Shown here: in pieces, positions 3,001-9,000 of the stretch
Position numbering within the stretch: position 1 is the first letter of the stretch
Layout of the letters: each line of letters starts with the position of its first letter
Virus record (IMG/VR): IMGVR_UViG_2718218100_000006
Strand: one strand, 5' to 3'
Origin: a virus
Taxonomy: Duplodnaviria; Heunggongvirae; Uroviricota; Caudoviricetes
Length of the DNA: 48,504 nucleotides
Position numbers: made by a program

Positions 3001-6000
3001 GCGCATCTCTGCCTGAATTTCGGGCCATTTGGCACCAGGCTTACATTTATGCTTAACCCACCCGATGGCATGCAGCTTAAGCTCCGGATACATAGCGTTA
3101 ACTTCTGGCATTTTCATCAACGCTTCAACGATATGGCCGTCGAATGTTGCCATGTCTTCCTGCAACAATTCCTGTGCGCTAATCACCATATCAACAGTGA
3201 TGTTTTCACATGTGTCGAACTTAACCATGACAGCGTTCTGTACTTCAGGGGCCAGGTTGTCAAAAGTGACGTTCATCGGATCGGATTCAGTCTCGACCGG
3301 GACAAAGGAAGCAGACGCCTCATCCCAGCGGTTTTCCTGCATATATTCAGCATCCCAGGAATCGAGGGCAGGGCGGGGTATACCGGGTTTATCCTCGCAA
3401 ACAAGAAATTTATAAGCGCAGTCCTGAGCAGCCGGATAATGTTCCAGGAATTGCCAGTGAAATTTTGCGCGGGCGCGACGTTCATCACCGGCTTCAATGG
3501 CAGTGGCTACAGCGACGGCACCTTCTTCCTTTATTGCCTGTTCGTCCGGAATGGCGGCGCAAATAAAGACTTTACTCATTTTGTTTTACCTCATTACAGA
3601 TTTAAGGGTGAACAAATCCCTGCCATTGCTGGCATATAAGAATGAAATCGGATGTTTATTACGGAACTGTTTTAAAGACCTGCCGGGATTTCGTTATTAT
3701 CCTGGTGAATAACTTTATCGACCGGGTAACAGTTACCGGGAATTTTCTGTTCGGTTGCTGCAGTCACACACTCCTGCATTGTCCTGTGAACACTGACTGC
3801 AATATCAACTGGCTCTCCGGAAACAAGAAAAACTGTCAGAACAAGTGCAAATGCTGTATTCATTGCCAGCATCCTTTTTGTATCGGACGTAAACGGGCCA
3901 ACATTGAAAGAATGCATATTTTATTTAATAGCTCCCGTTCGTGTTTTCTCTTGTTAATGGCATCTTCAGTAAATACAGGGTTACTGATAGTGACACCAAT
4001 TTCAAAACAACCTTCAGACGTATTAACGTTTGGTAATAACGTTTCCATTATCGCGTCCTCAACAATGAATTTTGTGATGCGGTGCCTGGTGCCTCCAGGT
4101 GACGTTAACCAGTTAACAATTAACGCCGGATACAGAGAATCCCCCCATAACACTGTTTTTGGTTTTAACTGTTCCGCGTGCGCTCAGCCGCATTCACCGC
4201 ATCACAAAATTCACTTTAAAAAGGGCGGCAGAGCAGTCACGGAGTAAAACTGATGCCGCCAAACGTCACCAGAAAATTGATAACAGAGGGCGTTGCAGCG
4301 GGGTTGTCACTTAAGCGTATGGTCAACCTGACAACCCGGTGTCCTCAACGGGGGAAGGAATAACCCCTCCATACTTACCGCCGCGCCATTTCGCGGATTG
4401 CCACAACCGGAAGCACACGGTCGACGAAAATTTAACGACAGGCTATCTATGAACCAGCTACCTCGCCGTGCGCTTTCGCGTTATGGTCTGACTTTTCAGG
4501 GAAATATCCTTTCAGTAAACTGTCAGTGCCGTATGCTCACCCGTGTCCGGCGCACGCACTCCACCTCACCCGTGGAGAACTCCTTAATTACCAACCTTAG
4601 CTTCGTTGGTTAGCTATTAACGCGGGTATGTAATCATTCTGGCAATGCTTAATGCCGCTGCTTTTTCCAGATTGGTGATATCCTGCTCCAGAGCGGACAG
4701 ATTTTCAGCCTGCTTAGCCCTGGCTTCATTGGCCCATTTCAGATCCTGCGCTGCATTAATTTTCTGGTGCATCCACTCATAAAGTTCATCATCGGTATAG
4801 TCTGGCGCGATGATGACGGGTTCTCGTTTCTGCATGTCGGCTCCTTGTGGTTAGCGTTGCCTGCTTTTAACCACGTCAGGCGAGGTGGTATCCTCTGAGG
4901 GGTCTGTTACTCGAGAGGAAATTGGTTATGAATACAATCAAGTTTTCTTGCCCAGAATGTGGTGGCGAAGTCTTTGACACATCCTTTAAGCCGCAGGGCT
5001 CTGACAGTTTCGCGGGAGCCATCTGCAAAAATTGTGGTCACCTTGTAACTGAAGATGAGTCCTCGCAGTTCGATGACGAAATCGTTGACAATATCTTCGG
5101 TGCACTCACCAGAGACTTTCTGAAGTAAAGGCGCATACCGCTTAGTTACCGCTCTGATAACTCTTACCTGTCCTGCAATGGCGCTGATGTCAATATAAAG
5201 CGCCATTGCTGCTTCTTTGCCGATCCCGGGATGCCTTCCATTCTGATGTTTGACTTCGCCCACTGAGAAACCCTCTGTTTCCCCTTAACGCCGGGGTAGC
5301 GGAACAAAAACCTGCTGCATAGTTATTAAAGTTGAACCCTGCCGTCATGTTCATACGCCTCGGGCTGGCTACTTAACCCCTGACCACTGCCGGGTAACTC
5401 GAAGTATTTCCCTGCGTTCTGTGGGGCGGGGTGGGTTGGTATTTTTAGTTTAATAAACATTAAACTTAAGTCAAGTAAAAACTAAACCGCGGGACATAAC
5501 AAACACAACGCTTTTGATAAAGTCGTTGCGGTTGTTATGTTTCTATTGGTAGTGAAAGTTAGGGAAACTGGCGTCTTGCGTGGATCACGTTTACTACTTC
5601 AACGCTTGATGTTGTTACGCGGTATAGAATTATATAGTTAGGGTGGGCTACAATCTCACGCAAGCCAGGTACTCTGTCGCTTGGTGGGTATAAATACGGA
5701 TGTTCGGATAACGGCAGCACACAACCCCTTAATCGCTGCCATAAGCGTTCAGCCGCATCTATGTCGAAACGAGCAATATAACTAGTTATATCATCTAGGT
5801 CGGTATCTGCGCTTTCAAGCCATAACACGGGTAACATTTTACTGCTTGCTCCGTTCCTTGCGCATCTTAGCAAAGCGTTCTGCCATTCTGCGCTCAACTT
5901 CGTCATGGGGAATTGCTGGGCGCGGATCTGCAAGGCTCGTTGCTACTTTCGCACGCAGCCATTCGTTGTAACTGTTTTCTTGTTCAATGGTTTCAAATTC

Positions 6001-9000
6001 AGAAACCATTGGTGAAAGGGCTCTATTCATGTTTCCTCCGGTTTTATAACTCAGGCGCGGCGGCATTTTTGCGCCGCAATCCATCTCGCTATGAGATCTT
6101 CCATTGATTCTTTTTTCTGCTTTAACTCGCTGATTATCTGGCGTTGCTCATCCTCAGGGAAGGCTGAAAAAATCTGCAATAATTCCAGTTGATTAGACGT
6201 TAACCCTGCATGTGGTGGAGAACCCCCCGGTTGTTCTGCGTATTCCGCATCCAGATACCCTTCCGGCATCCCGTATGTTTGCTCTATTCTTCTGGCAGCC
6301 TTTTCTCCAAACGAGGCTCTCCCACTCATTAGTTGAGATAGGTAGCTCTTCTCTTTGGGTGGCAGAGTTTTATCTTTAAACCACTCCTTGAGACGTAAAC
6401 GGCGAATTTCTTTTTTTTGCATGTGGTAATTATCTTTAGTAATCACTAAACAAGCAAATACTTGACTTAATGGTTTATTAAACACTAAACTCGCAAAAAA
6501 ACACTAAACCGAGGAAGGTATGACATTAAAAGAGTGAACCGCCCCGGAAATCCTGGAGACTAAACTCCCTGAGAAAGAGGTAAACAGGATGACTAAAAAT
6601 ACTCGTTTTTCCCCCGAAGTCCGTCAGCGGGCGATTCGTATGGTTCTGGAAAGTCAGGATGAATATGACTCACAGTGGGCGGCAATTTGTTCCATTGCCC
6701 CAAAGATTGGCTGTACGCCGGAGACTCTGCGTGTCTGGGTTCGCCAGCATGAGCGGGATACCGGGGGCGGTGATGGTGGGCTCACCAGCGCTGAACGTCA
6801 GCGTCTGAAAGAGCTGGAACGTGAAAATCGTGAACTGCGCCGCAGTAACGATATCCTTCGCCAGGCTTCCGCTTATTTTGCGAAGGCGGAGTTCGACCGC
6901 CTCTGGAAAAAATGATGCCACTGCTGGATAAGCTGCGTGAGCAGTACGGGGTCGGACCGGTATGCAGCGAACTGCATATTGCCCCGTCAACGTATTACCA
7001 TTGTCAGCAACAGCGACATCATCCGGATAAACGCAGTGCCCGTGCGCAGCACGACGACTGGCTGAAGAGAGAGATACAGCGCGTATACGATGAAAATCAT
7101 CAGGTGTACGGTGTGCGTAAAGTCTGGCGTCAGTTGTTACGGGAAGGAATCAGGGTGGCCAGATGTACAGTGGCACGTCTCATGGCGGTTATGGGACTTG
7201 CCGGTGTTCTCCGGGGTAAAAAGGTCCGTACGACCATCAGCCGGAAAGCCGTTGCCGCAGGCGACCGCGTAAACCGTCAGTTCGTGGCAGAACGACCTGA
7301 CCAGCTGTGGGTGGCTGATTTTACTTACGTCAGCACATGGCAGGGCTTCGTCTATGTGGCGTTTATCATTGATGTGTTTGCCGGATACATCGTGGGGTGG
7401 CGGGTCTCATCGTCTATGGAAACGACATTCGTGCTGGATGCGCTGGAGCAGGCGTTGTGGGCCCGTCGTCCGTCTGGCACCATCCATCACAGCGATAAAG
7501 GCTCTCAGTATGTGTCACTGGCCTATACGGAGCGACTAAAAGAAGCCGGATTACTGGCATCAACAGGGAGTACAGGCGACTCGTATGACAACGCGATGGC
7601 TGAGAGCATCAATGGTCTTTACAAAGCGGAGGTAATACACCGTAAGAGCTGGAAAAACCGTGCAGAAGTGGAACTGGCCACACTAACGTGGGTGGACTGG
7701 TATAACAATCGACGATTGCTGGGAAGGCTGGGCCATACTCCTCCGGCAGAAGCAGAAAAAGCTTATTATGCTTCCATCGGAAACGATGATCTGGCAGCCT
7801 GAGTTCACAGATAAAACACTCTCCAGGAAACCCGGGGCGGTTCAGAGTTTATTAAATCATTAAGGGTTGGTGATGCTAAGAAATTCGCGGCCAGACTTGG
7901 TGTATCGCCATCTTACTTATCGCAAATGGCGTCTGGACGAACAGCTATATCTCCAACCCGCGCCCTTATGATCGAATCTGCGACGGAAGGCCAAGTAAGT
8001 AGGGCGGAGCTACGACCCCATGATTGGGAGCTTATTTGGCCTGAGTATGCGAGCGGCATTCGTTTGGGGCAAACACATGTAGTTCATGCTGAAGGTGATT
8101 GTAGTGCATGCTTATCTGATGGAGTTGATTCATGAAAATCAAGCATGAACACATCCGCATGGCGATGAATGTCTGGGCGCATCCGGACGGCGAAAAAGTA
8201 CCGGCTGCGAAAATTACCAAAGCGTATTTCGAGCTGGGAATGACGTTCCCGGAACTGTATGACGACAGCCATCCGGAAGCCCTGGCCCGTAATACCCAGA
8301 AAATTTTCCGTTGGCTGGATAAAGACACCCCTGATGCTGTTGAAAAAATGCAGGCTCTGTTACCGGCGATCGAAAAGGCGATGCCGCCTTTGCTGGTGGC
8401 CCGTATGCGCAGCCACAGTTCTGAATATTACCGTGAGATCGTCGAACGGAGGGATCGGCTGGTGAAGGATGTCGATGATTTTGTTGCGTCAGCGGTTGTT
8501 TTGTATGACCAGATGAATCGCGGCGGCCCGGCAGGGAATGCTGTGGTGATGCACTAAAAGCACGGTGTTCGGGGGTTTTATGAGCAGCAAGCTTCATGGT
8601 CTTGTCTGGGAAGGGTGCGCCTTCACCGGCATGATCTTATCCAGGGTGGCGGTTATGGCCCGTCTTGCAGACTACAGCAATGACGAGGGCGTGTCATGGC
8701 CTGCCATTGAAACTATCCGGCGTCAGATCGGTGCAAGAAGTGAATCCACAGTGAAATCGGCTATTGCAGAACTGGCGAAAGAGGGCTGGCTGACGAAGGA
8801 AGAGCGTAAGGTCGGTGGGCGTAATGTAAGCAATATCTATCGGCTTAATGTGGAAAAACTCGAAGCAGCTGCTGCGGCGGCGCGTGAGTCATATAAACCG
8901 AAAAGAAAAATTAGCCCGGCAAAAAATGACCCGTTAACAGTTGACCCGTCAAATATTGCCCCCTCAACGGTTGACCCGTCAAATTTTGATGGATCAACTG

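Follow-up and report, generated by a model that had tools for sequence, protein, structure and literature searches.

The paaR2-paaA2-parE2 addiction module in the immunity region of a CP-933P-type prophage carrying an IS629-interrupted ydaS

The window analysed here, a stretch of 48,504 nucleotides of a Caudoviricetes record (IMGVR_UViG_2718218100_000006), is matched at 100% identity by Escherichia coli strain 472 and represents the CP-933P/Sp12 prophage type. Three ORFs on its minus strand, the coordinates of which are those originally predicted (Table 1), form the paaR2-paaA2-parE2 immunity module known from a cryptic prophage of the E. coli O157 type, and nearly all of its interpretation is published. 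Hallez et al. 2010, as cited in PMC8630535, is the source on paaR2-paaA2-parE2 of the EDL933 prophage CP-933P (Sakai Sp12), and Jurenas et al. 2021 (PMC8630535) reported 5′ RACE, footprints and repression assays for the locus, together with its bistability and its ability to stabilise mini-F. Over the aligned residues, each of the three proteins shows full identity to solved PDB chains, which bear the names ParE, PaaA2 and 'Phage repressor protein CI', and the published primers for the EMSA, PL, PR and PRE fragments have exact matches in the window. As in other three-component paaR-paaA-parE systems, a separate regulator gene is the first of the operon and the antitoxin has no DNA-binding domain. 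What is said on the organisation of the operon, on binding by the repressor, on the promoters and on bistable and plasmid-stabilising behaviour is taken from published experiments; the sequence identities, the geometry of the motifs and the IS insertion come from the present analysis.

Table 1. Features of the immunity region, with positions in the window
Feature	Position	Strand	Basis
OL operator block, mirroring OR and in part a direct repeat of OR (probable limits)	5443..5492	.	repeats I1, I3, D2; alignment statistics
PL933P, leftward early promoter, TTGACT-16-TAAACT	5447..5474	-	promoter scan; published
Long hairpin between parE2 stop and OL, possible 3′ end/terminator of the operon transcript	5494..5540	-	arms, folding
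parE2, ParE-family toxin, 92 aa	5559..5837	-	Pfam PF05016, PDB 5cw7_B identity
paaA2, antitoxin without DNA-binding domain, 63 aa	5839..6030	-	Pfam PF21217, NCBIfam NF050103, PDB
paaR2, repressor, 123 aa, leaderless, functional analogue of lambda CI	6051..6422	-	PDB, published N-terminus, 5′ RACE
OR region, 97 bp, intergenic; PRM933P, PR933P, operators IR1-IR4/OR1-OR3	6423..6519	.	EMSA primers, footprints
PRM933P, leftward promoter of the operon, TTGCTT-17-GATAAT (putative hexamers)	6429..6457	-	promoter published
PR933P, rightward promoter, TTGACT-18-TAAACT	6462..6491	+	promoter scan; published
ydaS (cro analogue), first 15 nt, severed by IS629	6520..6534	+	ORF reconstruction
IS629/IS1203, 1310 bp, 3-bp target duplication GAG	6535..7844	+	inverted ends, length, RefSeq, Rfam
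ydaS remainder, parted from PR933P	7845..8135	+	Pfam YdaS on C-terminal part
ydaT, CII analogue	8132..8557	+	Pfam YdaT, PHROG

The gene product of parE2 matches Pfam PF05016 (ParE_toxin) above the curated cut-off (E = 1.9e-16, 60.9 bits, cut-off 23) and is 100% identical to the crystallised ParE2 chain PDB 5cw7_B over 92 aa, which bears out the proposed ParE/RelE-like toxin. SOS induction and co-localisation with the nucleoid have been reported for ParE2 in the literature. The gene directly upstream of the toxin gene encodes a small PaaA2-type protein, as expected for an antitoxin, with matches to Pfam PF21217 (PaaA2; E = 1e-19, 70.7 bits, cut-off 27) and NCBIfam NF050103 (RelB-family antitoxin; E = 5e-24, 84.1 bits, cut-off 50). 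Its residues 2-63 are identical to PDB 3zbe/5cw7, and no HTH or RHH profile was matched by PaaA2 in the profile search. The antitoxin stop and the toxin start are separated by a single nucleotide (CAG TAA A ATG), again as predicted, while the TGA of paaR2 and the ATG of paaA2 lie 20 nt apart with GGAGG in between. Classical type II parDE systems (RK2, Caulobacter, Vibrio) have in common with this pair the ParE fold of the toxin, the upstream antitoxin gene and the labile antitoxin. They differ in that PaaA2 lacks a DNA-binding domain, so that control of transcription falls to a third, separate gene product and to the prophage switch.

The original prediction of a CI-type repressor holds with respect to function, but homology to CI is not detectable. 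PaaR2 was shown experimentally to be a leaderless analogue of lambda CI, with the N-terminal sequence MQKKE and a transcription start that coincides with the ATG according to 5′ RACE (PMC8630535). Residues 1-66, the N-terminal domain, match PDB 7nkv/8c3k ('Phage repressor protein CI') with full identity. In the profile search, no match to Peptidase_S24 was found in the 123 aa at E <= 0.1, and the sole HTH profile match, HTH_31, was sub-threshold (E = 0.064). Binding to DNA is nevertheless supported by the structure solved for the N-terminal domain and by the published footprints. Because the S24 domain is missing and HTH matches are sub-threshold only, PaaR2 was rejected as a true CI homologue. 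A self-cleavage motif is also absent according to the published work, in which PaaR2 did not respond to mitomycin C (PMC8630535).

The intergenic region between paaR2 and ydaS is bound by PaaR2, which represses PR933P and PL933P, and DNase I footprints of both PaaR2 and YdaS cover it (PMC8630535). Of the published EMSA primers, FL2 maps to 6423 and FL1 to 6500-6519. The predicted rightward promoter corresponds to PR933P, published as an active promoter under PaaR2 repression (PMC8630535). That PRM933P exists and starts at the ATG has been published as well (PMC8630535); judged from the sequence, TTGCTT and GATAAT at a spacing of 17 are its probable hexamers.

A copy of the PR motif had been predicted to the left of the operon, in mirrored orientation. 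This copy does have the same hexamers as PR, an inverted repeat and the layout of an OL/OR pair, but its spacer measures 16 nt instead of 18; besides mirroring OR it contains a direct-repeat segment, and it constitutes a leftward promoter (PL) reading away from the operon. PL933P, the -35 and -10 hexamers of which are those of PR933P, bears OL1-3 and is repressed about 100-fold by PaaR2 and YdaS (PMC8630535). The published PL-gfp fragment (primers F-PL and R-PL) corresponds to 5441-5558. The motif TACTTGACTTAA forms a perfect inverted repeat of 12 nt at 5466-5477 and 6459-6470, inside a longer 24-nt pair with 79% complementarity, and 5472-5492 is repeated directly at 6494-6514 (81%). Local alignment of OR with reverse-complemented OL gave a score of 30, while 2000 shuffles gave a mean of 14.5 (sd 2.4) and none reached 30. 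On either strand of the 48.5-kb window, the best non-self match to OR was the OL block (score 37 versus a background of 12.7 +/- 2.6). The similarity between OL and OR is therefore far above chance. Matches of 18 nt to at least 13 of 18 positions of the published operator palindrome GTTTAGTAATTACTAAAC occur in the whole window only at 5448, 5470, 6434 and 6473.

Between parE2 and OL, a hairpin with 22-nt arms (82% complementary) is located in a 126-nt stretch (5440-5565) with a folding energy of -29.7 kcal/mol (z = -4.7); it is possibly the 3′ end or a terminator structure of the operon transcript. A terminator scan revealed no canonical intrinsic terminator past parE2 on the minus strand and one match on the plus strand (5415-5433). 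With Rfam at a relaxed threshold, the sole match in 5150-6560 was a meaningless one to a miRNA family on this hairpin.

The element at 6535-7844 is annotated in RefSeq as IS3-like, IS1203 family. With its 1310 bp, inverted repeats at its ends, orfA/orfB with programmed frameshift and a target duplication of 3 bp, it displays the properties of IS629/IS1203 (IS3 family), and it contains an Rfam ALIL frameshift pseudoknot (6870-6986). Removal of the IS and one GAG restores a ydaS ORF of 100 aa; its product and the intact YdaS encoded by phage Evi differ at a single residue. The junction of paaR2 and ydaS reconstructed in this way is intact in 583 of the 593 matching complete genomes and also in EDL933, where it is 100% identical. 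The ydaS-IS629 allele is rare (2 complete genomes). Gene order, promoters and the sequences of OR and OL agree with those of CP-933P of EDL933 (Sakai Sp12), in contrast to ydaS, which in the window (strain 472) is cut by IS629 15 nt past its start; this insertion is the only local peculiarity of the window copy compared to the published module. With ydaS split in this way, the prediction is a switch locked in the PaaR2-on state. With a ydaS stop mutant, the ydaST-on population was lost in a reporter (PMC8630535).

YdaT matches Pfam YdaT (E = 2.8e-10) and the PHROG 'CII-like activator' (E = 3e-47). The OM operator TTGATTN6AATCAA published for ydaT (PMC9986795) was located at 8125-8142; by primer mapping, the PRE933P fragment of the literature covers 8041-8160. 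The Pfam names 'YdaS_toxin' and 'YdaT_toxin' might suggest a second toxin-antitoxin pair; this reading was rejected, since published work shows both proteins to be Cro-like and CII-like regulators.

The layout of the region is the same as in lambda's immunity region (PL/OL, rexB, rexA, cI, PRM/OR/PR, cro, cII). Both have a leaderless repressor mRNA, two operator sites with about 1 kb between them, partners of the Cro and CII kind and accessory genes cotranscribed with the repressor. In contrast to lambda, PaaR2 lacks detectable CI sequence homology and an S24 autocleavage domain, the OR of paaR2 comprises four 18-bp repeats instead of three operators, and a ParE-type toxin-antitoxin pair takes the place of RexAB as cargo. 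A second relative is the paaR1-paaA1-parE1-type paralogue of CP-933M in EDL933, a similar set of which is found in strain OkiPb01692. It has the three-gene order and adjoins a ydaS/ydaT-like pair, but it has another repressor (132 aa), and the DNA of its toxin-antitoxin region is about 92% identical with only 49% of the query covered.

Taken together, PaaR2-PaaA2-ParE2 is very probably a repressor-linked addiction module of the prophage immunity region, with the ydaS-IS629 copy predicted to be locked in the PaaR2-on state. PaaR2 is produced from a leaderless PRM transcript and acts on repeated operators at OR (6423-6519) and OL (about 5443-5492), repressing PR and PL and autoregulating PRM in the manner of lambda CI. 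PaaA2 and ParE2 are transcribed together with it. PaaA2, devoid of a DNA-binding domain, is degraded by ClpXP and ClpAP; loss of the immunity region would therefore deplete the antitoxin first and kill the cell, and addiction of this kind would stabilise either the whole prophage or just the immunity region. In the window copy, the IS629 insertion 15 nt into ydaS would hold the switch in the PaaR2-on position. The published locus is bistable and functions as an addiction module, the function demonstrated being addiction (post-segregational killing) on plasmids (PMC8630535). Expression of the pair from the repressor promoter, as originally proposed, is in line with the finding of operon transcription in either state of the switch (PMC8630535).

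The same transcription pattern could also serve phage defence. The pair might be a working equivalent of rexAB, poised in every lysogen, in which a superinfecting phage frees ParE2 and thereby causes abortive infection or exclusion; the trigger could be a shut-off of host transcription followed by Clp degradation of PaaA2, a protease-labile antitoxin. It occupies the slot of rexAB in lambda, between repressor gene and PL, as the original prediction had it and as expressed in PMC9986795, which says of the pair that it "replaces rexA and rexB". This position is all that paaA2-parE2 has in common with the RexAB exclusion system, to which it does not belong. The same module with intact genes is found in the isolated coliphage Evi and is therefore more than a relic. 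In related heteroimmune prophages that share its flanks, the slot is empty or holds a paralogous paaR-paaA-parE set, so that the module behaves like accessory cargo. However, a PADLOC scan of the three operon proteins and two neighbouring proteins assigned no defence family to the operon proteins, and the literature searches yielded no paper testing exclusion or defence by PaaR2-PaaA2-ParE2. Moreover, the published phenotype is addiction, and toxin release was not seen, ParE2 activity being undetected in either switch state during steady-state growth (PMC8630535). A role in defence is unlikely. Even less probable is the extended version, according to which PaaA2-ParE2 is a rexAB-like anti-phage module expressed in lysogens and set off by decay of the labile antitoxin after phage-induced transcription shut-off, and repeated IS629 insertions in ydaS/ydaT were selected as a permanent lock-on.

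It is somewhat more plausible, though still doubtful, that the pair is a purely selfish insertion kept by addiction alone, without benefit for prophage or host, the repressor linkage supplying nothing but a promoter. Reliance of PaaA2, which has no DNA-binding domain, on prophage regulators is consistent with this, as are the sister prophages with the same flanks and no cargo, and an insertion of the toxin-antitoxin pair into the immunity region was suggested by the authors of PMC8630535. On the other hand, the three-gene arrangement recurs beside a second, heteroimmune repressor type, which suggests that the three genes travel as a unit. Selfish maintenance is also hard to separate from the preferred addiction reading, because addiction to the immunity region stabilises the prophage as well.

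The locus represents a textbook-grade toxin-antitoxin pair wired into the lysis-lysogeny switch of a prophage, the structure and regulation of which have already been described in detail. The presence of the module in the isolated phage Evi and the natural ydaS-knockout alleles provide handy material for the question of addiction versus phage defence.

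All three minus-strand ORFs of the predicted repressor-antitoxin-toxin operon were recovered by ORF calling in the window and lie exactly where the original prediction placed them, with the toxin start one nucleotide past the antitoxin stop (CAG TAA A ATG) and 20 nt, including a GGAGG ribosome-binding site, between the paaR2 stop and the paaA2 start. ParE2 (92 aa) matches Pfam ParE_toxin (E = 1.9e-16) and is identical to PDB 5cw7_B over 92 aa, in agreement with the proposed ParE/RelE-like toxin. The antitoxin-like gene product, PaaA2 (63 aa), matches Pfam PaaA2 (E = 1e-19) and the NCBIfam RelB-family antitoxin model (E = 5e-24), and its residues 2-63 are identical to PDB 3zbe/5cw7. 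For PaaR2 (123 aa), no match above threshold was obtained in the Pfam/NCBIfam profile search; its residues 1-66 are identical to PDB 7nkv/8c3k, which carries the name 'Phage repressor protein CI', and paaR2 occupies the cI position (PMC8630535). All three proteins are included in PHROG families. The window, a degenerated lambdoid prophage, is 100% identical over its full length to E. coli strain 472 (NZ_CP018245.1, 2153016-2201519, reverse complement). Judged from the protein and PDB matches and the genome identity, the locus is paaR2-paaA2-parE2 of the CP-933P/Sp12 prophage type. In several RefSeq genomes PaaR2 is labelled 'hypothetical protein' (WP_001169686.1), despite its solved N-terminal domain and published function.

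Features of the paaR2-paaA2-parE2 locus and of the surrounding prophage
Feature	Position	Strand	Description
paaR2	6051-6422	-	repressor
paaA2	5839-6030	-	antitoxin
parE2	5559-5837	-	toxin
PR933P-type motif	6462-6491	+	TTGACT-18-TAAACT; consensus promoter scan
Mirrored motif	5474 to 5447	-	same two hexamers, 16-nt spacer; consensus promoter scan
PRM hexamers	6457 to 6429	-	TTGCTT-17-GATAAT; inferred from sequence
Inverted repeat	5466-5477 / 6459-6470		perfect, 12 nt; nested in a 24-nt pair, 79% complementary
Direct repeat between blocks	5472-5492 / 6494-6514		
Hairpin	5494-5540		between parE2 stop and OL; long, imperfect, 22-nt arms
Terminator-like hairpin	5415-5433	+	
Conserved segment	5300-5442		143 nt left of PL
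CxxC zinc-ribbon small gene	4922-5128	+	ECs_2282 family, E = 1e-15; opposes leftward PL transcript
ydfC	4617-4835		
DicF sRNA	4223-4274	-	Rfam, 76.2 bits
IS629/IS1203	6535-7844		1310 bp; splits ydaS after nucleotide 15; GAG target duplication
sok antisense RNA match	12433-12607		with hokD; Rfam, 116.9 bits
hokD	12602-12757	+	type I toxin
Second gene with antirepressor N-terminal domain	~20567-21136		
P22 immI-like module	37333-38988		includes two Arc-family genes
sar antisense RNA	38042-38108	-	in immI-like module; Rfam, 66.7 bits
Ant antirepressor gene	38110-38988	+	in immI-like module

The candidate PR was located by the promoter scan. Its mirrored copy was recovered as well: the hexamers recur on the minus strand and the two sites share the perfect inverted repeat, with a spacer of 16 nt instead of 18. 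The motif blocks OR (the 97-bp paaR2-ydaS intergenic region) and OL (the operator block left of parE2, ~5443-5492) are related well beyond chance. OR aligned locally to the reverse complement of OL with a score of 30, reached by none of 2000 shuffles (mean 14.5, sd 2.4), and the OL block was the best non-self match to OR on both strands of the whole window (37 vs 12.7 +/- 2.6). Within the window, sequences agreeing with the 18-bp operator palindrome at no fewer than 13 positions were found only at 5448, 5470, 6434 and 6473. Together with the published PL repression, this bears out the predicted OL/OR arrangement. The 126-nt stretch holding the hairpin between parE2 and OL folds far better than shuffled sequence (-29.7 kcal/mol, z = -4.7). 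The terminator scan did not score the hairpin as a canonical intrinsic terminator, and no T-run adjoins it; it may mark the 3' terminus of the operon mRNA or form a 3'-end structure there.

The supplementary primers of Jurenas et al. (PMC8630535) map exactly on the window (EMSA 6423-6519, PL-gfp 5441-5558, PRE 8041-8160). In that study, OR was reported to contain four 18-bp inverted repeats (half-site GTTTAGTAA) plus OR1-3, and to be bound by PaaR2 (footprint ~78 bp) and by the Cro analogue YdaS, which competes for the PaaR2 sites. PaaR2 binds to OR, it represses PR and PL, and low PaaR2 stimulates PRM; PRM933P, the operon promoter, and PR933P are both repressed by PaaR2 and YdaS, as is PL933P (~100-fold). 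From the operator similarity and the PL repression we infer that PaaR2 also binds OL. A PRE-like promoter is activated by the CII analogue YdaT, and the paaR2 locus is bistable (PMC8630535). The PRM933P transcript starts at the paaR2 ATG (N-terminal sequence MQKKE; PMC8630535), and the mRNA is therefore leaderless. Cotranscription of paaA2 and parE2 with paaR2 (PMC8630535) agrees with the proposed expression of the toxin-antitoxin pair from the repressor promoter. PaaA2 is a substrate for degradation by both ClpAP and ClpXP, and ParE2 triggers the SOS response; the pair stabilises an unstable mini-F plasmid and cells are killed on loss of the locus; toxin release was not detected in either switch state (PMC8630535). 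The pair takes the place of rexA and rexB (Prolic-Kalinsek et al., PMC9986795), the position predicted here. Given these experiments and this statement, the anatomical reading is correct and already in print.

The interpretation is supported, for a system already known, except for the abortive-infection or exclusion role, for which paaA2-parE2 is a hypothetical candidate only. None of the three proteins matched a defence family in the PADLOC scan, and a literature search found no test of exclusion or abortive infection for paaR2-paaA2-parE2. The genomic context mildly supports accessory cargo in a slot that lysogens express. The conserved segment left of PL is common to 3704 of 5426 complete E. 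coli genomes (89-97% conserved). Where sister prophages encode a LexA-type, RacR-type or 139-aa repressor, its gene directly adjoins this segment with no cargo between, and in another strain the same slot is filled by a paralogous paaR-paaA-parE trio. The module is intact in the isolated coliphage Evi (98.4% DNA identity), whose parE2 is unannotated though the ORF is intact. The segment itself, located just downstream of PL, adjoins different repressor types and lacks RefSeq annotation; it appears to be the left edge of the exchangeable immunity region and the PL transcript leader.

Elsewhere in the prophage (67-749, 27478-30062 and 40083-46423), integrase and portal genes are frameshifted, which fits a cryptic prophage, and two type III effector genes, espN and nleL, are located at the far end beside IS2 remnants. 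DicF is encoded in the PL operon between ydfC and dicB, arranged as in the dicB operon of the Qin prophage. A second toxin-antitoxin system is represented by hokD and sok. Because PaaR2 has no self-cleavage domain, an antirepressor could serve as the induction route.

In silico removal of IS629 restored a 100-aa YdaS. The intact paaR2-ydaS junction is present in 583 complete genomes, EDL933 included, and the IS629 allele after ydaS nucleotide 15 in two. At offsets 70, 173 and 445 relative to the start of ydaS, at least three further independent IS insertions were found in ydaS/ydaT of other strains; together with the one in the window, these four share one orientation. On the paaR2-paaA2-parE2 side, an interrupted copy was not noticed. 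Since a ydaS stop mutant lost the ydaST-on state in a reporter (PMC8630535), we predict that the copy in the window stays locked in the repressor-on state and that PR is disconnected from ydaT and the replication genes.
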